Origin: an uncultured bacterium
GTDB taxonomy: Bacteria; T1Sed10-126
Direction of reading: 5' to 3'
DNA length: 56,582 nucleotides
Assembly (NCBI GenBank): GCA_964566495.1
Contig: CAZMIT010000001.1
Span: 1 to 56,582 of the forward strand
In this document: positions 7,193-20,311 of the stretch, piece after piece
How the letters are laid out: the number at the start of each line of letters is the position of its first letter
How positions within the stretch are numbered: position 1 is the stretch's first letter
Made by a program: the position numbers and the translations under genes
Notes under the pieces: model-generated
Database searches by the model: none
The model's input: only the letters and a program-made list of their open reading frames with translations
What the model was told of the DNA's origin: nothing

Positions 7193-8276
7193 GAGTGGCT
7201 CCCTCGGGGTCTTGCATTAACTGCAGCAATCGGTTGCCGTCCGAGAGCAGGAAAGCCGTACTCGCGTCAAAACCTTCTTCGTATGCTTCCAGGGAACGCA
7301 TGAAGCGGAAGAACTCGGGATCGCGCTGGTAAGCTTCGGCCCAGATGGAAATCGCCCGCCGTTCGGCACGGCCGCGTATTTCCTCGGCCCGACGGCGGCC
7401 CTCAGAAATAAGTTCGTCCTTCCTTTCTGATATTTCCCCTTCAACTTCGATTATAATTTCCTCGCCCTCACTCTCATACTGCTGGGCAACTCGATTCCTT
7501 TCGGCTTTCATTCGATCAAAAACATTTTCTCGAACATTGCCCGGATAATTCACCCGGGTAAACAGAACATCTACGAGCTGAATGCCGTATTCATCCAATA
7601 GGTGCTGAGCCTTATCTTTTTCAATTCGCCGCAGCAGCTCTCCCCGCCCGTAACGGATTTCATCAACCGCCACCTCATCAACCTCCTCGGTTTCCTCGTC
7701 AACGGCTTCCAGCAGTTCCTCGACCTCTTCGTCGAGACCTGTGTCCTCATCGCGAATCACTTCGATGAGTAACGTCTCCGAAATCAAATCCTCAACGCTG
7801 GAGTTTATCTCCGAGGCAAGCTGCAACAGGGCCTGACGCCGGTCACCCAGTGATTCGTAGAAATTTATGGGATCAACGATGCGCCAGCGGGCGTTGGCTT
7901 CAATCAACAGGGAACGCAGATCCTTGGTTGAAATTTCGTGCTCAGCGCCATCCCAGACAAGAACGCGGGCGTCGAAATAATGGGCTTGATCGACAAACGG
8001 GAGTTTGAAATAGAGGCCGGCTCCCCGTTGTAGCATTCCCTGGTTATATTTTTCCTGGATGTCCTCAAAGCTGAAGTCAATCACAGGATCAACCTCATCT
8101 GCAACCGCTCGGTCCTCGCGGAAAGCAGGCAAAACAGCGTATTGAACCTCTCCAAAACGAGTTACGACAACATTCTGATACTCGGGTACAAAATAAATTA
8201 AACCACTGCCATAAGCAAGCAATGGCAGGCCAATGACAATCAGCAGCAGAGCAACTATTACTTTAAGAAATTTCAA
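7182..8276 (-). CDS. hflC: SPFH/band-7 protease modulator HflC
   Basis: 364 aa with an N-terminal TM segment and an SPFH domain ('VVVTRFGEV'). It is paired immediately downstream of hflK. It carries an acidic insert, 'DEEVEELLEAVDEETEEVDE'. Confidence 0.8.
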   Translation of the reverse strand: MKFLKVIVALLLIVIGLPLLAYGSGLIYFVPEYQNVVVTRFGEVQYAVLPAFREDRAVADEVDPVIDFSFEDIQEKYNQGMLQRGAGLYFKLPFVDQAHYFDARVLVWDGAEHEISTKDLRSLLIEANARWRIVDPINFYESLGDRRQALLQLASEINSSVEDLISETLLIEVIRDEDTGLDEEVEELLEAVDEETEEVDEVAVDEIRYGRGELLRRIEKDKAQHLLDEYGIQLVDVLFTRVNYPGNVRENVFDRMKAERNRVAQQYESEGEEIIIEVEGEISERKDELISEGRRRAEEIRGRAERRAISIWAEAYQRDPEFFRFMRSLEAYEEGFDASTAFLLSDGNRLLQLMQDPEGATPDF

Positions 8277-8279
8277 TAT

Positions 8280-9272
8280 TTAGTCCTCCCGACCGAGGTT
8301 GAGGTGGGGCAAAAGTCCCGGAATTTGGCTGTCAATCACACGCACATCCTCGCTTTCTTTGATAACCGTCTCCATTGTCTCCAGAAACATTCGTTCCCGG
8401 GTCACTTCAGGGGCAAGCTGATATTCTTCAAGCATTTCTTCAAAACGCGTCGCCTGGCCGAGAGCCAGGTTAATTCGAGCAGCACTATCTCCACGGGCTT
8501 CAGCAATCATTTGCTGGCGGCGACCGCGGGCCGGCGGTATTTCACGCTCCCACTTTTCTTGCGCCTGGTGCCGTTTCTCTTCGCGAATCTGACGAGCACT
8601 ATTAACCCGGTGAAAAGCTGGCACAACCAGCTCTGGCGGTTCACTCTGTTGGATGTTAACCTCGCTGACAGTAATCCCGGAGTTATAGTTGTCAAGCAAT
8701 TGCTGTAATTTGTTACGGGATTTACGAGCAATTTCGCGGCGCGCTGCTGTTATGGCGTCAACCACATCATAATCGCCGGTCACCTGCCGCAGTGCCGATT
8801 GACTGGCCTGGCGAATCAGGGGAACCTCGTCCTGAACGTTCAAGACATAAAGGACAGGGTCGGACCGCCGGTAGAGAACATCCCACTCAATTCGAGCCAC
8901 GCCCAGGTCGCCGGAGAGAATTAGCGCCTCCGCGTCGAGATCTGAGATTTGTCTCTCGTCGGGGCGGTGGCCAAAGGATTGGCGATTCATTCGTTGAGTG
9001 TTAACAACGTGAAGTCTTTCCAGTGGATAAGGCAACTTCCATCCCAGGCCGGGCGGAATCTGACGAGAAAAACGACCAAATCGGAGCAGAATACCCCGTT
9101 CATCGCGATCAATTTGATAAATCATCGTCGGTAATAGCAGCAGCGCAAGCACAAGCAGTACGGCCAGCACAGTTACCGGCCAGTATCTGAGCCAGTCCGC
9201 CGCCTCTGCAAAAAAATCACTAAAATCATTTTCCGGTTTTTCAAAACCGGGTCCACCAAAATCCTCAGACAA
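8280..9272 (-). CDS. hflK: SPFH/band-7 protease modulator HflK
   Basis: 330 aa with an N-terminal TM segment, an SPFH domain ('ERGILLRFGRFSRQIPPGLGWKLPYPLE') and a coiled-coil C-terminus. There is a 3-nt gap to hflC. Confidence 0.8.
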   Translation of the reverse strand: MSEDFGGPGFEKPENDFSDFFAEAADWLRYWPVTVLAVLLVLALLLLPTMIYQIDRDERGILLRFGRFSRQIPPGLGWKLPYPLERLHVVNTQRMNRQSFGHRPDERQISDLDAEALILSGDLGVARIEWDVLYRRSDPVLYVLNVQDEVPLIRQASQSALRQVTGDYDVVDAITAARREIARKSRNKLQQLLDNYNSGITVSEVNIQQSEPPELVVPAFHRVNSARQIREEKRHQAQEKWEREIPPARGRRQQMIAEARGDSAARINLALGQATRFEEMLEEYQLAPEVTRERMFLETMETVIKESEDVRVIDSQIPGLLPHLNLGRED

Positions 9273-12563: not shown

Positions 12564-14693
12564 TTATTTTTCGGCAAGTGGCCGGTAAGCGGATTCTTCA
12601 TACTCGCCGACCATGCGGTTGGTGTTGAAAAAACCGAGTGTCGATTTTATTGCCTCCCGCATACGGCTGATCCAGGCCGACGGCAGGCCCGACTCGTTGC
12701 GTTCGTAATAATCAGGCACAACCTCGTTTTCCAACGTCTCATAGAGAGAAACAGCGTCAACGTGATCCCCTTCTTCTGGTGGCCGCTCCTTTTCGTCACC
12801 GATTGTCCAGCCGTTTTCACCGTTATAGCCTTCAGCCCACCAGCCGTCAATTATGCTGAGATTCAAAACACCGTTAAAAGCTGCTTTCATACCACTGGTG
12901 CCGCTTGCCTCGTTGGGGCGGCGTGGTGTGTTAAGCCAAACGTCAACCCCCTGGACAAGCCGGGTGGCCAAACCAAGGTTATAATTTTCAAGGAAAATTA
13001 TTGAATTGCTTAGCTCTTCACGAGATTGATGCGCAAAAATATCCCGTATTAGCTGTTGACCAGGCTTATCAGCCGGATGGGCCTTACCGGCAAAAATTAT
13101 CTGGACCGGCCGTGACGAATCGGTTAACAACGCCTTTAAGCGCTCATAATCACGGAAAATCAGATCGGCTCGCTTATAGGTGGCGAACCGGCGAGCAAAC
13201 CCAATTTGCAGCGTATCAGTATCAAATAAACGGTCAATTTTAGCCAGCTCCGGAGGTGATTCACCGTGGCGTGATTTTTGTTCGTGCAAATTCTGCCGGG
13301 CAATACGTAAAAACCTCTCCTTCTGAAAACAATGCGCCTCCCATATCTCCTGGTCGGATAATGATTCCAGTCGAGCGATTATTTTTTCGAGATCGCTCTG
13401 CGACCAGGGCGATGGCGGAACTCGCAGCAGGTCACGAAAGTTTGTCCCCAGCCAGGTGGGGGCATGGACACCGTTAGTTATGGAAAAGAGTTTTTCGGAG
13501 TCCAACAACCCCCCCCACATTTCACCGGTTACCCGCTCATGAAGCTTGCTCACGCCATTCGTCCGTTCAGCCGAACGAATCGCAAAAGCTGTTAGATTAA
13601 ACTCCGTTGATGAATCCGACTCCGATCGCCCAAGTGCTACAAAATCTTCCAGGTTAAGATCTGTTTTTTCACAGAAATCTTCAAAATACTCTTCAATCAG
13701 GTCAACATCGTAGCGTTCGTGCCCGGCGACCACCGGCGTGTGGGTGGTGAAAAGTGTGCTTGAACTTATCTGTTTTAACGCCGAATCCAGGTCCTGACTT
13801 CCTGAAACTTCACTCTGCAACCGCTCAGTAACCTGGAAGACACTATGCCCCTCATTCATGTGCCAGACAGCAGGATCGATGTCAAGCGCCCGCAGCGCCT
13901 TGACCCCTCCTACCCCAAGAACAATCTCCTGACAGAGTCTCATCTCTCGTTTTCTTACGTAAAGCTGGCCGGTTACAGGCCGCAGCTCCGGTGGATTTTC
14001 GGGGAAATCAGAGTCAAGTAAAATAATGGGTATCTTACCCACCTGAACTTTCCAGACTCTTAAGTTGACGGTCTCGTCCTTGAGAGGACAGTTGATAACC
14101 AACGGATGTCCCTGGTCATTAAGTACTTCCTGAACTGGAAGTCTTGTGAAATCAATTCGGGGTAAAACATGATGCTGTGAGCCGTCGGCATCAACACACT
14201 GCTCGAAGTAACCATTACGGTAGAGCAACCCAATAGCGACGAGCGGCAGGTCACGGTCACTGGCAGATTTTACATGTTCGCCACTTAATACGCCCAGACC
14301 ACCGCTGAATATGGGAATACAGTCGTGAATACCGTATTCAGTTGAAAAATAGGCTACAGGACCGGGATAATCGTAACTGTCGCCGTTACCGCTATTGTTC
14401 ATATAGTTTTCAAACTCACGCACAACCTCGGAATAGAGGGATAAAAATTGCTCGTTATTCTGCAGGGGATACCAGTGTGGCGGGTCCATCTCCATAAGCA
14501 GCTCGACCGGATTCCGGTAGTGTGTCCAGCGATCAGGGCCAAGGAAACTGAACATGCGCATCGCTTTTGGCGACCAACTCCACCAGAGATTATAGGCCAG
14601 CTCAGGCAATTGACTGAATTCATCGGGAACATCAATTTCTATCGGCCGTCGAGACGTAAAATTTAAATCTTCTGTTTTTACCATCTTCATCAC
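12564..14693 (-). CDS. glgP: Alpha-glucan (glycogen/maltodextrin) phosphorylase, GT35
   Basis: 709 aa. The pyridoxal-phosphate lysine motif 'EASGTSGMKAAFNGVLNLSIIDGWW' is present, together with 'FTTHTPV' and 'GGLGVLSGEH'. Confidence 0.9.
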   Translation of the reverse strand: MMKMVKTEDLNFTSRRPIEIDVPDEFSQLPELAYNLWWSWSPKAMRMFSFLGPDRWTHYRNPVELLMEMDPPHWYPLQNNEQFLSLYSEVVREFENYMNNSGNGDSYDYPGPVAYFSTEYGIHDCIPIFSGGLGVLSGEHVKSASDRDLPLVAIGLLYRNGYFEQCVDADGSQHHVLPRIDFTRLPVQEVLNDQGHPLVINCPLKDETVNLRVWKVQVGKIPIILLDSDFPENPPELRPVTGQLYVRKREMRLCQEIVLGVGGVKALRALDIDPAVWHMNEGHSVFQVTERLQSEVSGSQDLDSALKQISSSTLFTTHTPVVAGHERYDVDLIEEYFEDFCEKTDLNLEDFVALGRSESDSSTEFNLTAFAIRSAERTNGVSKLHERVTGEMWGGLLDSEKLFSITNGVHAPTWLGTNFRDLLRVPPSPWSQSDLEKIIARLESLSDQEIWEAHCFQKERFLRIARQNLHEQKSRHGESPPELAKIDRLFDTDTLQIGFARRFATYKRADLIFRDYERLKALLTDSSRPVQIIFAGKAHPADKPGQQLIRDIFAHQSREELSNSIIFLENYNLGLATRLVQGVDVWLNTPRRPNEASGTSGMKAAFNGVLNLSIIDGWWAEGYNGENGWTIGDEKERPPEEGDHVDAVSLYETLENEVVPDYYERNESGLPSAWISRMREAIKSTLGFFNTNRMVGEYEESAYRPLAEK

Positions 14694-14746
14694 CTTTTCA
14701 AAAAAATCAATAAATTTTGTTCAGGGTTCAAAACCTACCGAAGCCC

Positions 14747-14857
14747 TGTCATTGCCGGGAACGAATAACGTCCCAAGGCTTGACCCGGCAATCCAGCTTA
14801 CTGGGCTCCATAGATTCCGGGTCTACGGTCGCTTCGCTCACTTCGCCCGGAATGACG
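14747..14857. repeat. Two REP-like hairpin elements in opposite orientation
   Basis: The first is 'tgtcattgccggga...cccggcaatccagc' (14747-14797). The second is 'attccggg...cccggaatgacg' (14813-14857, inverted). Confidence 0.7.
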
Positions 14858-15087
14858 TCGGTAGATTGTGTTCTGGGTTCTGCCGCCCTCCCCGACCTAA
14901 CAACTCAAATTATGAAAGATATAGTTTAAATATTTTCCTGAAAATTACAACTGATTTGACCACCTTTTTAGACAAGCTCGTGATAACTACTGCCGGGCCG
15001 GGATTGCAAAGACGATCGATAGAGCAAGCAACCTCATGTCGAACTTGATCCGGCCTCAATAATAACAAGACCGTTGAGAAGTTCTGG

Positions 15088-15930
15088 TTAAGCGTTTGGA
15101 TTATACCGTCTAAAAACATCCGACACCAGCTCTTGAAAGTAATCCATTATCCTGCGACAGTCTTCGGGAAGCGAGTCGGAGTTAGGAACTTTTATCACTT
15201 CTAAAAACCAATCGTCCACGTAGGCGTTTTTTACTAGTAGTTTAAGCACTTCACGAAAATCTATCCGGCCTTCACCGGGAGGCAGATGATCGTCCTTCGT
15301 GCCACGGTTATCACTGAGATGAGTGTGGCGGATTCGCCGACCGAATTCCTCAATATAATCGGCAATTGTTGACTTACTGAGGAAGGCATGACTGGTATCC
15401 AGAGTGAGATAAAACTCACCGTCAGTATGTTGGTCCAGCCACTTAAGCTCCGGAAGAGTGCCACCCAGGTGGTGAGGAAGCGTATTTTCCATACATATTT
15501 TAAGCGGACGATCGGCCAGGTAATTCAGCAAACGGTTGGTAAAGCTGGCCGAAGCCTCCAGCGCCCGCCGCGCCTTATTTTCATCCTCCGGCCGGCGCGT
15601 CCCCGGGTGCAAAACCATCCTTCTTATACCAAGCTGAAGACTGTGTTCAATAAGACGCCGGTAAATGTCAAAGGCCCTGTTGGCGTGAGTCGGGTCGGGA
15701 TTATCTATCGCCCAGCCGTCACGTGAAGGGGGATGGACTGCAACGTAATTCATATTATGGTTGATTTTAAATTTGCGCAGTGCATTTATCAATCGCGCAT
15801 CAAGCAGATTAGCATGCGATTTCTCGGCCCACAGCTCAACATTACTTATGCCCTCGGCGGAAAATACTTTTAGAACATCAAGCACGTGCCAGGAGTAACG
15901 TATACCAGTGGTCAAACCTATATTGTACAA
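15088..15930 (-). CDS. AP-endonuclease-2 / xylose-isomerase-like TIM-barrel protein (endonuclease IV-like metal site)
   Basis: 280 aa. The motifs 'VAVHPP', 'VLHPG', 'CMENT', 'LDTSHAF', 'HTHLSDN..DDHLPPGEGRIDF' and 'FLEV' can be aligned by eye with the nine metal ligands of endonuclease IV. Membership of the superfamily is firm. Whether it is a nuclease or a sugar isomerase is not resolved. Confidence 0.7.
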   Translation of the reverse strand: MYNIGLTTGIRYSWHVLDVLKVFSAEGISNVELWAEKSHANLLDARLINALRKFKINHNMNYVAVHPPSRDGWAIDNPDPTHANRAFDIYRRLIEHSLQLGIRRMVLHPGTRRPEDENKARRALEASASFTNRLLNYLADRPLKICMENTLPHHLGGTLPELKWLDQHTDGEFYLTLDTSHAFLSKSTIADYIEEFGRRIRHTHLSDNRGTKDDHLPPGEGRIDFREVLKLLVKNAYVDDWFLEVIKVPNSDSLPEDCRRIMDYFQELVSDVFRRYNPNA

Positions 15931-15949
15931 ATTTTATCCTCCGCCCCGG

Positions 15950-17332
15950 TCAGGGACGTTCTCCTACGTTATAACCACAGAAGGGTTTGGTACATATCCC
16001 ACGTTCCTGAAAGGAGACGCAGTTCATATCCGTATATTCGTCCCTGCCGGTTTGAATTAATGTGTAGAAAAAGCGAACCCAGACGTCGGCCCGGGTGGCA
16101 GCATCGTAGTGATACCAGTCTTCCGACCAGTTGTAATCACGTTCAAACTTACTGCGAATTAATCCTGCTACGTCCTTGGGATGCCAGCCACGATCGCTAA
16201 ACCAACGCACAAACGACTGAATGTGCGTTGGTTCTAACAACCGCGGATTGGGACGGCGAAGCGATTCACCCAGACAGTGGGGAAGCTCGTTCGGACTGAC
16301 CCGGTCGTAAGTTTTATGCCAGTCATAATGTGGATCCTGGTAGCCACTGTCAAACTCGTCATGAGCAGACCCGACAGAGGAACTATTATACTCATCAATC
16401 ATTTTCTTGACCGCCGCCGACATCTCAGGAATACTGGTACTCTCAATTTTTCGAGCATATTTTTGCACTGCTTCCGGCCGCCGACGAAGGTCCAGTAGTT
16501 CCCCCAACGATTTATCAGCCACGGGGAGAGTATATTGAGGTGGAATTGTCCGCCGGATGTAATCGCCTACCTTGTGCACGTAAACCCGGTGCTTCTGATG
16601 CGAACTGAAAGGAACCCGCACATCGCGCATGTAGAGCGGGTCGGCAAACATACTGAGGTCTAAATTAATCTGTTCTCGACCTCTGTAGGAAGGTCCGGGT
16701 ACCCCGTCGCCAATCGTCAGGGGAAGTTCACACTGGTTGCCCACCCGCTCGACCAACTCACCGGCCATCCATTCAAAAAGCCGTCCCAGCCCATCATAGG
16801 CCTCTCCTTCGGCAAGTGGCAGCTCCGGCTCCTGAACGTCATACTTCGCTGCCAGCGTCCAATTAATCGAACCAATTTGAGCGAGGTCTTTATAAGCCTT
16901 ACTTTTTTTGGAGACACGAAACGAAAAATGATACCCCTGGCCGGTCATCAGGATTAACGGCTCAATATCGTATTCTGCAAAAAATTTCCGCGCTACCTCA
17001 AGGAAAGGCTGCAAACGCCCGTAGCCATACTCCGGCTGTCGATAGACGAGCGCCGGGTCGTCATGATTTACATATTCAACGTCAAAGACACATACCATGT
17101 CCTCACTGTCCCAGGTGGAACGAAACAGGTCCAGCCCCTCATCAACAAACCAGCTAAACCCCCACTCGGGTGGCGCCGACTCGTAATTCCCCTCCCGATG
17201 CAAAAACGCAGGACCAAAGCCAACTAAATAAATGGCCGAGATGTCCTCTGGCTTGCCAGTTTCAGCACCGCAGTATTCAAGCATCCGCTTCTGAACGACC
17301 GGGTCCTTATAATAATCCTTAACTGTTAACAT
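15950..17332 (-). CDS. PriS-like archaeo-eukaryotic primase (AEP) superfamily protein with Cys-rich PriL-CTD-like C-terminal domain
   Basis: 460 aa. AEP motif I is 'CVFDVEYVNHDD', motif II is 'TGQGYHFSF' and motif III is 'INLDLS' plus 'RDVRVPFSSHQKH'. The C-terminal region has 'LPHCLGESL...FVRWFSDRGW' and 'NCVSFQERGICTKPFC', giving four Cys. The call rests on motif recognition only. Confidence 0.5.
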   Translation of the reverse strand: MLTVKDYYKDPVVQKRMLEYCGAETGKPEDISAIYLVGFGPAFLHREGNYESAPPEWGFSWFVDEGLDLFRSTWDSEDMVCVFDVEYVNHDDPALVYRQPEYGYGRLQPFLEVARKFFAEYDIEPLILMTGQGYHFSFRVSKKSKAYKDLAQIGSINWTLAAKYDVQEPELPLAEGEAYDGLGRLFEWMAGELVERVGNQCELPLTIGDGVPGPSYRGREQINLDLSMFADPLYMRDVRVPFSSHQKHRVYVHKVGDYIRRTIPPQYTLPVADKSLGELLDLRRRPEAVQKYARKIESTSIPEMSAAVKKMIDEYNSSSVGSAHDEFDSGYQDPHYDWHKTYDRVSPNELPHCLGESLRRPNPRLLEPTHIQSFVRWFSDRGWHPKDVAGLIRSKFERDYNWSEDWYHYDAATRADVWVRFFYTLIQTGRDEYTDMNCVSFQERGICTKPFCGYNVGERP

Positions 17333-17342
17333 AGCCTGCTCC

Positions 17343-18560
17343 TCATAATAAAGTTAGCGGTTTTTCAAGATTGTTCTTAATATCGGTTAGAAAACTGGCT
17401 GCGTCGGTGCCGTTTACCGCCCGGTGATCGCTGCCCAGCGAGAGGCTAAGAAGCTGCCCGGGCAGGCACTTTCCGTCTTTCACAACTGGTTGCTGGCGCA
17501 CCCTTCCGGCGGCAAGTATACCCACCTGGGGAGGGTTTATTATGGCAGAAAAACGGTCAATGCCACGGCGACCGAGGTTATAAACCGTAAAGGTCGCTTT
17601 TCGAAAACTTTCTGGTCCTAATTTGCCGGCCTGCAACTTGTCCTGTAACTCTTTCTTCCGGCTGTGAATTTCAAAGATAGATCGACGATCTGCCCGCTCA
17701 ATTACGGGTGTAAACAGGTCTGATTCGACGGCGACCACAAAGGCCAGGTCTACACGATCATATACCTGCAGATGATCCCCCTCGTAGGAGGAGTTATAGA
17801 CGGGATTGTCACATAGAGCCCGAGCAACTGCAGCTAAAATAAAGTCATTATTGTCGAGTTCATAGCCCAATTCGCTTAACTGCTCTTTAACTTTTGACGT
17901 CGGTTGAGCGTCAACTTCGACGCTAAGATCAAGCTGGGGAATCTCTCGCCTGGATTTGCTCATGTTCTTCCCCACCGCGGCTTGATTTTTTGAAATTTGA
18001 TGTTTTTCGGCACGCAGGCGGCGGGGAGAAAAGATAGTGTGAGGAGTTCTTGACTCGCCATTTTTCTCTGGTTTATCACCAAAACCTTGCTCCACCGCCT
18101 TTTCAATATCCGCTTTAACCACCCTCCCCTCGGCTCCAGAGCCTTCTATCCTGGAGGGATCAATATCATACTTGTCCGCCAGACGCCGAGCTGCTGGCGC
18201 AATCCGCTCCTCGGGGTCAGCTATCTTGGAAGTTTCCTTGACAGTCTCGCGGCCGCTCTTTTCAGTCTTTCGCTGCGATTTTTTTGGCTCCTCCCCTTCT
18301 ACCGCTGACGGTTCAGAGGCGGGCGCGTCAGCAATTATTGCTATCGTCCCATCCACGGGTACCTCCGTCCCGGCCACCACTTTTTTCTCGCGCAAAATAC
18401 CGTCCTCGGGAGCCTCGAGGTCCAGAGCGGCCTTGTCAGTTTCAACCTCTGCTATTACTTCGCCTGTTTCCACTTCCTGGTCCTCTTCCACGAGCCAGTT
18501 GACAAGTAAACCGCTCTCCATATCTTCGGTTAGCTTTGGCATCTTCATTTCAACAGCCAT
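17343..18560 (-). CDS. 2-oxoacid dehydrogenase E2 component (dihydrolipoamide acyltransferase)
   Basis: It has a lipoyl domain ('EVETDKAALDLEAPEDG'), a subunit-binding domain ('APAARRLADKYDIDPSRIEGSGAEGRVVKADI') and a catalytic domain with 'DHRAVNG'. Confidence 0.85.
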   Translation of the reverse strand: MAVEMKMPKLTEDMESGLLVNWLVEEDQEVETGEVIAEVETDKAALDLEAPEDGILREKKVVAGTEVPVDGTIAIIADAPASEPSAVEGEEPKKSQRKTEKSGRETVKETSKIADPEERIAPAARRLADKYDIDPSRIEGSGAEGRVVKADIEKAVEQGFGDKPEKNGESRTPHTIFSPRRLRAEKHQISKNQAAVGKNMSKSRREIPQLDLSVEVDAQPTSKVKEQLSELGYELDNNDFILAAVARALCDNPVYNSSYEGDHLQVYDRVDLAFVVAVESDLFTPVIERADRRSIFEIHSRKKELQDKLQAGKLGPESFRKATFTVYNLGRRGIDRFSAIINPPQVGILAAGRVRQQPVVKDGKCLPGQLLSLSLGSDHRAVNGTDAASFLTDIKNNLEKPLTLL

Positions 18561-18605: not shown

Positions 18606-19469
18606 CTATTGCTCCAGTTTTGCCACATCCTCGACGTGGAGAGGCAAATTATCCTTGAGCCTCACATCACCGGCATAGCCGGCCAGAATAACCACAGCAT
18701 CTCGATCCCCCGGCCAGGCTGGGTCGTAGTGAGGAAAACGTACAACGTCCAGATATTGCAGGTCAAAACCCGCTTCCTCCAGCCGGGGAACATAACGACT
18801 GAAGAGTTTTTGCCGACTCAGCTCAGCCGCCTCTTCTTTGATTGAACGCATGATCTCGTAAACTTCTTGAGCAGTTTCCCAGCCGCTCTCGTCCAGTCCC
18901 TGGTTACGCGAGCTGTAGGCGATACCGTTTTCATCCCGAATTACCTGCACGGGAACAATTTCCTGCTGGAAAAGCAGATCTTCAACCATGCGACTGACAA
19001 CTATGTATTGTTGCAGATCTTTCTGGCCAAAATAAACGCGATCAGCGGGTACAGCGTTAAGCAGTTTACTCACCACGGTTATAACCCCGGCAAAAAAATT
19101 CGGGCGAATTGCACCCTCGTAGCAGCGAGTTACGGAACTATTGCTCACCACCTGGGTAGCATTACCGGGTGGATACATCTCAGCGTCGTCCGGGTGGAAG
19201 ATAACGTTAACCCCGGACTCGGCGGCCAGCTTTTTGTCACGCTCAAAATCCCGAGGATAGGCTTCGGCGTCCGTCTCAGAATCAAACTGCTGGGCGTTCA
19301 CGTATATGCTGGCCACTGTTACATCGTTTTCCTTCGCGGCACGTCGAAACAGGGCACAGTGCCCCTCGTGAAGGGCACCCAGGGTAGGAACAAATCCAAC
19401 GCTTTTGTCCTCTTTCCTTAGCTGTAACACTTCCCGGTTTATTTCTTCTGCCGTAGATAATACTTTCAT
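18606..19469 (-). CDS. panC: Pantoate--beta-alanine ligase
   Basis: 'VPTLGALHEGH' is the HIGH-type motif. The ORF is 287 aa and overlaps panB by 4 nt. Confidence 0.9.
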   Translation of the reverse strand: MKVLSTAEEINREVLQLRKEDKSVGFVPTLGALHEGHCALFRRAAKENDVTVASIYVNAQQFDSETDAEAYPRDFERDKKLAAESGVNVIFHPDDAEMYPPGNATQVVSNSSVTRCYEGAIRPNFFAGVITVVSKLLNAVPADRVYFGQKDLQQYIVVSRMVEDLLFQQEIVPVQVIRDENGIAYSSRNQGLDESGWETAQEVYEIMRSIKEEAAELSRQKLFSRYVPRLEEAGFDLQYLDVVRFPHYDPAWPGDRDAVVILAGYAGDVRLKDNLPLHVEDVAKLEQ

Positions 19470-20311
19470 CTTGCTTCGAGGAGCAGCTCACGAACCTGTT
19501 CGGAGGAAAGTTTCTCACCGACAGAAAAACTCTCTTCCGAAGCGGGAAATTCTTCCTTTTTTACTGCCTCACAGAAAGAATTAACGCCGTCGGAAAGCCA
19601 CTCTCTCATTTCACCCCACTTTCTAACAAAAGTTGGTATTTGATCAGTTAAACCCATCATATCCTGCCAGACCAGCACCTGGCCGCTGCATTCCAGGCCG
19701 GCGCCGATTCCAATCGTTGGCAGATCAATTAACTCAGTCAATTCAGCCCCCACTTCCTCCGGCACGCACTCTAAAACAAGAGCCGAAATACCGGCCCGCT
19801 CGAGCGCAAATGCTTCCCTACCAAGTTCCTCTATGTTCTCCCTGGTTTTGGCCTGAACTCCGTAGCCACCGAGAGCTTCAATTGACTGGGGAGTTAGTCC
19901 CAGATGCCCGATAACCGGGACATCGTGAGCAACCAGGTGCTCTATCAGATCAAGATTTCTCTCCCCGCCTTCGAGTTTAATCGCCTGCGCCCCTCCCTCT
20001 TGCATTAACCGACGAGCTGCACGCACCCCACTCTCAAGCTCCAGGGCTGCCTCCAGGAAGGGAAAGTCCGTCACAAGAAAAGTATTTTTGACGGCGCGAC
20101 TGACTGCGGCCGTGTGATGAACCATGTCCTCAATAGTAACCGGAATTGTCGAGTCATAACCAAGCATAACCCCGCCCAGACTATCACCAACCAGGATCAT
20201 GTCCAGCCCGTCAACTTCGTCCATCACCCGCGCAGTCAGATAATCATAACAGGTCAAACAGGTCAAAGGCTCACGGGCTCCGCGTATATCAACTATTGAC
20301 GGTCTACTCAT
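19466..20311 (-). CDS. panB: 3-methyl-2-oxobutanoate hydroxymethyltransferase
   Basis: It contains 'LTCYDYLTA', 'ILVGDSLGGVMLGY' and 'AIKLEGG'. The ORF is 281 aa. Confidence 0.9.
   Translation of the reverse strand: MSRPSIVDIRGAREPLTCLTCYDYLTARVMDEVDGLDMILVGDSLGGVMLGYDSTIPVTIEDMVHHTAAVSRAVKNTFLVTDFPFLEAALELESGVRAARRLMQEGGAQAIKLEGGERNLDLIEHLVAHDVPVIGHLGLTPQSIEALGGYGVQAKTRENIEELGREAFALERAGISALVLECVPEEVGAELTELIDLPTIGIGAGLECSGQVLVWQDMMGLTDQIPTFVRKWGEMREWLSDGVNSFCEAVKKEEFPASEESFSVGEKLSSEQVRELLLEAR

Follow-up and report, generated by a model that had tools for sequence, protein, structure and literature searches.

Two adjacent genes in an uncultured bacterium raise the question of whether an enzyme that extends or starts nucleic acid chains and one that cleaves phosphoesters have been brought together in an unrecognized repair unit. 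The genes lie on the minus strand of contig CAZMIT010000001.1, which is 56,582 nt long and is referred to in full as the window. The first, at 15950..17332, encodes a 460-residue protein with the fold of the archaeo-eukaryotic primases (AEPs); the second, at 15088..15930 and 19 nt downstream, encodes a TIM barrel protein of 280 residues. An earlier note, made from the sequence of the window, had singled them out as a possible undescribed DNA repair or priming pair. Its coordinates and its 19-nt spacing are exact: the AEP open reading frame (ORF) ends with TGA at 15952-15950, and the barrel gene begins with TTG at 15930. The genes have been conserved as a unit and are co-inherited in numerous phyla. 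To judge from the sequences of its members, the pair is probably an undescribed unit of nucleic acid repair.

Conservation of the gene pair

In the phylum of the window, sampled as 12 species genomes, the AEP gene is present in seven, which belong to a single family. The same seven genomes carry a strong match to the barrel (240-313 bits), in each case adjoining the AEP gene, and the other five have neither. Most of the carrier genomes in this and the wider survey are metagenome-assembled genomes (MAGs), and absences may reflect their incompleteness. A cultured carrier of the pair is Roseiconus nitratireducens JC645 (L066).

The survey of neighborhoods across phyla covered 80 AEP loci from many phyla. 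An orthologous barrel gene (236-388 bits) lies downstream on the same strand at 37 of these; it abuts the AEP gene at 36 and is 1.3 kb away at one. At 6 of the 80 a larger, divergent barrel of the AP_endonuc_2 family is found immediately upstream. In all 11 Elusimicrobia-type genomes the AEP locus has no barrel, and an orthologous barrel gene (203-267 bits) is located in another part of the genome. The relationship also holds from the side of the barrel. Seven of seven strong orthologs on independent long contigs have an AEP gene upstream, encoding 467-504 residues, overlapping the barrel gene by 4-19 nt and matching the family at E values of 1e-126 to 1e-146, and a weak relative of the barrel (93 bits) has no AEP neighbor.

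The two proteins are, rarely, encoded as one. An exhaustive profile search revealed two ORFs in which an AEP is followed by a barrel, the order of the gene pair: P0168 (747 residues) and P0183 (724 residues), whose barrel portions give E values of 2e-54 and 4e-70, respectively, with the family profile. A search of a word-indexed database with an artificial AEP-plus-barrel query found no fusion.

There is no third conserved gene. The 120 flanking proteins match 214 Pfam families, none of which is represented in more than four; they include the products of hisS, aspS, phoH and lpoB, and glycosyltransferases. Since both genes and their adjacency are conserved, chance is excluded as the reason for their association. 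The earlier note had proposed that linkage or fusion be sought in other genomes, and both were found. It had also suggested that the pairing might be undescribed, and a search of the available literature for an AEP with a xylose-isomerase-like or endonuclease-IV-like partner returned none.

The AEP-family protein

The 460-residue protein has no match in Pfam, NCBIfam (none at E ≤ 0.1), PHROGs or PADLOC, and none among PDB sequences, whether the single sequence or a 34-sequence profile is used. With all sequence and profile searches empty, a family assignment at that level, to LigD-Pol or Prim-PolC among others, was ruled out. An AlphaFold 2 (AF2) model built from an alignment of 34 homologs has a predicted local distance difference test score (pLDDT) of 92 and a predicted template modeling score (pTM) of 0.92. 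In a Foldseek search of the PDB its best match is 2r9l, the LigD-Pol of Mycobacterium tuberculosis, with an E value of 7.4e-4, a probability of 1.0 and a template modeling (TM) score of 0.53 on the target. The top matches are all AEPs (2r9l, 6sa1, 5op0, 3pky, 7p9j and 4bpu), among them Prim-PolC (6sa1 and 5op0) and the CRISPR-associated Prim-Pol, CAPP (7p9j). Human PriS, PrimPol and poxvirus primase domains are weaker matches.

The three AEP motifs lie in the catalytic domain, approximately residues 1-296 (16445..17332). Motif I is D84-x-E86, within 'LDVEYVN'; motif II is 'TGQGYHF', containing G133 and H135; motif III consists of D225 followed by R236, R239, S243 and K247 ('DLS....DP.YMRD.R.PFS.HQKHK'). 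Seven of these residues, D84, G133, H135, D225, R236, R239 and S243, are invariant across the 34 homologs, at least 90% of which also have E86 and K247. The DxD/E, H, D catalytic layout is common to LigD-Pol (2r9l, 3pky). Given the model and the motifs, the protein is a genuine AEP-fold enzyme of an unannotated family, and the label 'AEP-like' in the earlier note was well chosen.

The word-indexed search yielded 186 relatives, and of 185,579 species genomes 385 encode a member of the family. When 1.84 billion representatives were searched exhaustively with the profile, 678 cluster representatives matched at E ≤ 1e-3, 312 of them at E ≤ 1e-30. Where the source names these proteins, the name is always 'hypothetical protein'. 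In one relative, P0232 (612 residues), a pair of CBS domains is fused to the N-terminus of the AEP, which matches at residues 162-598. CBS domains bind adenosine-containing ligands, and their presence here hints at regulation by such a ligand. Apparent N-terminal fusions at loci L067, L036, L040 and L008 were rejected as stop-free upstream stretches that hold no domains.

The C-terminal helical domain, approximately residues 297-460 (15953..16444), is seen in the alignment and in a model of the domain alone (pLDDT 87.6). Nearly every sequence of the AEP1 type has four cysteines, C353, C438, C447 and C452, which are presumed to form a putative Fe-S or Zn site. The alignment also reveals a motif, WHP(K/R)xxAGLIRSK, with an invariant 'WHP'. 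Compared with PDB folds the domain model gave nothing significant (best E value 1.8), and among the viral models of BFVD there was no match. A resemblance to the C-terminal domain of the primase subunit PriL (PriL-CTD) was considered and is unsupported, since neither PDB nor BFVD gave a significant match; for PriL-CTD 6du0 the E value is 6.8, the probability 0.11 and the TM score 0.25. The region is treated here as a putative cysteine-cluster domain with a fold that has no significant match in PDB or BFVD.

These features bear on the possibility that the AEP is a repriming or restart primase which, with its four-cysteine (Cys4) domain, would prime de novo past lesions; the barrel would serve to trim back or remove a blocked end or primer. 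It is known that accessory modules such as the zinc finger of PrimPol and PriL confer priming on AEPs, and the conserved Cys4 domain attached to this AEP was counted in favor of priming on that ground. PriS and PrimPol are among the fold matches, and the lineages with AEP1 and AEP2 in tandem, described below, recall two-subunit primases. In PriS/PriL and the PolpTN2-type PriS-PriL fusions (PMC3973330), too, a single chain combines an AEP domain with a C-terminal domain that is helical and bears cysteines. The window protein differs from these in having no significant fold match to PriL-CTD, and in being encoded on the chromosome away from mobile elements. In addition, its C-terminal domain is without significant likeness to solved or viral models, its best fold matches are gap-filling repair AEPs and not PriS, and AEP2 retains its catalytic residues, unlike a non-catalytic subunit of the PriL type. 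DnaG is present alongside the AEP, which is therefore not the replicative primase. On balance, a primase dedicated to restart is an unlikely explanation of the pair.

The barrel protein and its metal site

The earlier note placed the 280-residue protein among the TIM barrels of the AP-endonuclease-2/xylose-isomerase-like superfamily, and the match to AP_endonuc_2 (PF01261, E 1.2e-30) agrees. It also aligned, by eye, all nine ligands of the trinuclear metal site of endonuclease IV. These nine residues, H66, H108, E148, D178, H181, H204, D213, H215 and E244, do not vary among 18 orthologs of approximately 25% identity, nor do H153, D207 and N208; the glutamate that the note read in 'LEV' is E244. 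In a profile alignment H109, E145, D179, H182, H216, D229, H231 and E261 of Escherichia coli endonuclease IV (Nfo) fall directly on eight of the ligands, and H66 matches Nfo H69 by position only. The Nfo sequence used has 285 residues, the length of PDB 1qtw, and its nine published ligand positions are H, D or E. The fused ORF P0168 keeps the nine ligand positions but has 'ENMQPQLL' (residues ~615-625) where other members have the histidine of 'LPH', which corresponds to H153 of the window protein.

Could the barrel be a sugar isomerase or epimerase, as public annotations have it? Ketose 3-epimerases and sugar isomerases of this fold have a smaller metal site, E-D-H-E. D-tagatose 3-epimerase aligned on the barrel profile lacks equivalents of H66, H108, D213 and H215, and sugar epimerases score at most 66 bits compared with 139 bits for MJ1311 of Methanocaldococcus jannaschii, so that this identity was rejected. 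With its full set of ligands the barrel stands apart from the sugar isomerases and epimerases, as the earlier note had supposed.

The closest relative of solved structure is MJ1311 (PDB 3wqo, an 'uncharacterized protein'), which has been given as a predicted endonuclease IV homolog (PMC2770678). The single barrel sequence matches it at an E value of 4.6e-11 and the family profile at 1.4e-39, over residues 16-279 of 293. The two share the motif HxxDNxGxxDxHLxxGEG and all ligand positions. The full-length score of 139 bits for MJ1311 compares with 200-390 bits for true orthologs on the alignment-derived profile, and with at most 52 bits for Nfo structures.

Endonuclease IV itself (Nfo, TIGR00587; 1qtw) has in common with the barrel the TIM barrel fold and the nine ligands, but the barrel reaches only 35.4 bits against the nfo model, for which the cut-off is 129.65. 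Separately, 9 of the 12 genomes in the phylum encode a canonical nfo that exceeds the cut-off (168-285 bits), and carriers of the pair are among them. Because the barrel scores below the nfo cut-off, because MJ1311 is closer, and because the lineage has a separate canonical nfo, we regard it from these sequence comparisons as a specialized paralog rather than the housekeeping AP endonuclease. The description 'endonuclease-IV-like' thus applies to the metal site and does not extend to identity with endonuclease IV. No xth was found in any of the 12 genomes. An anticorrelation of the pair with canonical nfo or xth was looked for and dismissed, since genomes with the pair also have nfo and no genome of the phylum has xth.

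The best NCBIfam model for the barrel is CbiR (NF041277), at 64 bits. CbiR belongs to the same superfamily, which includes small-molecule phosphodiesterases, and has conserved metal-ligand residues (PMC7733943). An alternative is thus a module that does not act on DNA, in which an AEP nucleotidyltransferase and a CbiR-like phosphodiesterase would make and cleave phosphodiester bonds at the ends of RNA or in small molecules or polymers that contain nucleotides. The coexistence of canonical Nfo in the lineage fits such a module, as do the reported lack of a DNA groove in MJ1311, neighbors with housekeeping or envelope functions and none in repair, and the CBS pair of P0232. The CbiR score is, however, below the cut-off of 105; no cobamide genes are present among the 120 neighbors; the neighboring genes vary and indicate no pathway; and the partner of the barrel, unlike that of CbiR, is an AEP. 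The closest structures to that partner are DNA-repair AEPs. To our knowledge, all characterized AEPs act on nucleic acids. We consider a non-DNA role doubtful, with RNA ends as one form that it might take.

Distribution and genome context

The family is rare and patchy: apart from the 385 carriers among 185,579 genomes and the single family in the phylum of the window, none of 150 randomly drawn Planctomycetota carry the AEP, although several Planctomycetota do. Because of this rarity and patchiness, the distribution points to the horizontal spread of an accessory unit. The unit is also compact and moves between bacteria and archaea, and a horizontally spread two-gene cassette for conflict or defense, acting on invading nucleic acid, was considered on these grounds. 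By tblastn, neither 72,556 plasmid records nor 50,697 phage records yielded a homolog of the AEP, and a mobile-element origin was accordingly set aside. There is also no significant match to the PADLOC defense models, and the surroundings are housekeeping genes, with no defense islands or mobile-element genes. A role in defense is very unlikely.

The earlier note compared the pair with the modular logic of LigD, in which a polymerase, a phosphoesterase and a ligase are joined, and suggested that a ligase or Ku be sought elsewhere in the genome. LigD-Pol is the best fold match of the AEP, and the barrel could be the equivalent of the LigD phosphoesterase domain. Such a system would use Ku and a dedicated ligase to join double-strand breaks. 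LigD-Pol belongs to a Pol-PE-Lig fusion, which acts together with Ku. No ATP-dependent DNA ligase (PF01068) was found in any of five genomes of the window phylum, nor in the Elusimicrobia and Thermodesulfobacteriota carriers; Ku is absent from seven of the eight carriers checked; and neither a ligase nor Ku is encoded among the 120 neighbors. The end-cleaning partner is, moreover, a TIM barrel and not of the LigD phosphoesterase fold. A ligase is present in the lineage, namely LigA. The comparison with LigD is therefore one of analogy only, and end joining of that type is largely refuted and highly improbable.

Two observations concern ligA in the family of the window. A second AP_endonuc_2-like ORF, of 326 residues, adjoins ligA in several genomes and scores ~54 bits to the barrel profile and ~23 bits to nfo. 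In the genome of the window itself it is represented by an ORF at G000:C62:962-1507 next to a LigA fragment (C62:204-722), and the same arrangement is seen in G011:C101 and G009:C1. On these last two contigs the LigA match (G009:C1:24012-26243 and G011:C101:25141-27372) is in two pieces that repeat model positions ~476-558 and lie in one open frame of 784-796 residues, which suggests an insertion or partial duplication in the LigA of this lineage.

Variant loci

At 15 of the 80 loci two tandem AEP paralogs take the place of the barrel (L004, L010, L018, L020, L022, L030, L031, L033, L036, L037, L042, L052, L053, L055 and L063). In L030, for example, the second AEP gene lies directly behind the first, at 7320-8924. 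The carriers are Auribacterota and other MAGs of the Planctomycetes-Verrucomicrobia-Chlamydiae (PVC) group, UBP18 and some archaea. A barrel at the level of an ortholog was not found in any of these 15 genomes; 14 have no match at E ≤ 1e-15 and the remaining one has only matches of up to 92 bits. In the AEP tree the second copies branch basally in clades of their own, and the labels of context show strong clustering, with 17 changes compared to 55 when shuffled. The second copies retain every catalytic residue; those of archaea have lost their cysteine cluster.

The divergent upstream barrels (L064:4414-5598, L068:4680-5876, L072:4708-5913, L074:3093-4235, L076:4914-5981 and L079:147-1325) are 356-402 residues long and keep at least seven of the nine ligand positions. 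Their hosts are Thermodesulfobacteriota, one MAG labeled Pseudomonadota, and archaea (Methanosarcinales and Woesearchaeota). The catalytic motif residues of the AEP are retained in every context group, apart from changes of H135 at these loci, where four of five AEPs have asparagine in its place in motif II.

Proposed function

We put at roughly 0.5 the probability that the AEP and the barrel constitute one functional unit, the products of which act in sequence on nucleic acid ends or gaps. In the proposed sequence the barrel, with its trinuclear site of the endonuclease IV type, would hydrolyze a phosphoester. Its target would be either a 3′ end blocked by a phosphate, a phosphoglycolate or part of a sugar, or the bond on the 5′ side of a residue that is abasic or damaged, and its product would be a 3′-OH. 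The AEP, with a two-metal center formed by D84, E86 and D225 together with H135, would then add nucleotides to this 3′-OH or start a short chain. The four-cysteine C-terminal domain may help to hold the template or the initiating nucleotide, and the housekeeping NAD-dependent LigA would seal the nick. On this view the substrate would be DNA, in preference to RNA or small molecules, the steps would follow in this order, the cysteines would bind a metal, and the two proteins may form a physical complex.

The closest AEP structures are those of the bacterial repair enzymes LigD-Pol and Prim-PolC, and this was counted in favor of a repair unit, along with the strict or near-strict conservation of the catalytic motifs, the nine metal ligands preserved at ~25% identity, and the linkage of the two genes to each other and to no other gene. 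There is a precedent for the two chemistries in mycobacterial base excision repair (BER), in which endonuclease IV removes the 3′-phosphate left by a glycosylase-lyase, Prim-PolC fills a gap of 1-3 nt, and a ligase seals it (PMC5663958). Prim-PolC, which acts with LigC, is likewise a repair polymerase of the AEP fold (5op0, 6sa1). The window AEP differs from it in having no detectable sequence similarity and in carrying the Cys4 C-terminal domain. The systems differ as well, since the partner in the window is a dedicated, adjacent MJ1311-like barrel and not the housekeeping Nfo, and LigC is missing, as are other ATP-dependent ligases.

Several points weigh against a sequential repair function. 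With canonical Nfo in the lineage, ordinary repair of AP sites needs no barrel of this kind. MJ1311, the closest solved relative of the barrel, is an uncharacterized protein, reported by Uechi et al. in 2014 to conserve the nine zinc ligands and to lack the DNA-binding groove of Nfo. The best NCBIfam model of the barrel, CbiR, is that of a small-molecule phosphodiesterase. Repair genes are not found as conserved neighbors among the 120 flanking proteins. Each of the two fused ORFs is a singleton on a metagenome contig of ~3 kb, where an assembly error is possible. Finally, replacement of the barrel by an apparently active second AEP is not predicted by a simple scheme of cleaning and then filling, and calls for caution.

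Within the interpretation that the earlier note placed on the pair, the AEP fold, the metal site and the linkage stand as observed, and DNA repair is the part that we infer. A broader proposal may be offered tentatively. The pair may be a self-contained and unrecognized cellular machine for repair or restart, in which a new AEP family with a metal-cluster domain is combined with a dedicated three-metal phosphoesterase, and it occurs in ~0.2% of prokaryotic species, both bacteria and archaea, from a wide range of phyla. Certain lineages would use a second catalytic AEP in place of the phosphoesterase, which would imply a mechanism beyond known BER and non-homologous end joining (NHEJ).

Organization of the locus

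Upstream of the pair, and also on the minus strand, are panB (19466-20311), panC (18606-19469) and a complete gene for an E2 acyltransferase (17343-18560), all assigned to families by Pfam and NCBIfam. The ATG of the AEP gene follows the E2 stop codon after a spacer of 10 nt (17333..17342) in which GGAG can be read directly. The 19-nt spacer between the AEP and barrel genes (15931..15949) has a Shine-Dalgarno sequence, GGAGG (15942-15938), 7 nt before the TTG start. Translated from this TTG, the barrel begins 'MYNIGLTTG', in agreement with the consensus 'M..IGLSTG' of the 18-ortholog alignment.

The earlier note had suggested co-transcription with the E2, panC and panB genes. The short E2/AEP spacer with its GGAG suggests this for the lineage of the window only. 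The order panC-E2-AEP-barrel occurs just in the two closest relatives (L001 and L002), and the neighbor survey leaves these genes outside the conserved unit. Beyond the barrel gene there is a gap of 394 nt (14694-15087), which precedes a minus-strand gene for alpha-glucan phosphorylase (12564-14693; Pfam/NCBIfam) and is likely to mark the end of the transcription unit. GC-rich, hairpin-like repeats lie in this gap. A scan for promoters and terminators gave counts near the chance level and was uninformative.

Significance

Bacterial AEPs are known mainly from the LigD and LigC repair complexes and from mobile elements. The family described here is encoded on the chromosome, and neither Pfam nor NCBIfam has a model for it. 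Both components come from known superfamilies, and the proposed logic resembles that of known BER. No earlier description appears to exist of the AEP family, of the dedicated barrel subfamily or of the AEP1-AEP2 alternative. In public records the AEP is 'hypothetical' and its partner a 'sugar phosphate isomerase/epimerase', so that a widespread mis-annotation would be corrected if the proposal is true. A compact unit consisting of an end-cleaning enzyme and a primer-independent polymerase, as is predicted here, could serve as a reagent. For the MJ1311-type barrels, which have an endonuclease IV site without endonuclease IV function, it would be the first functional lead. For many uncultured anaerobes, for Planctomycetota, Verrucomicrobiota and Elusimicrobiota, and for DPANN or methanogen archaea, it would mean a new route of repair or restart.

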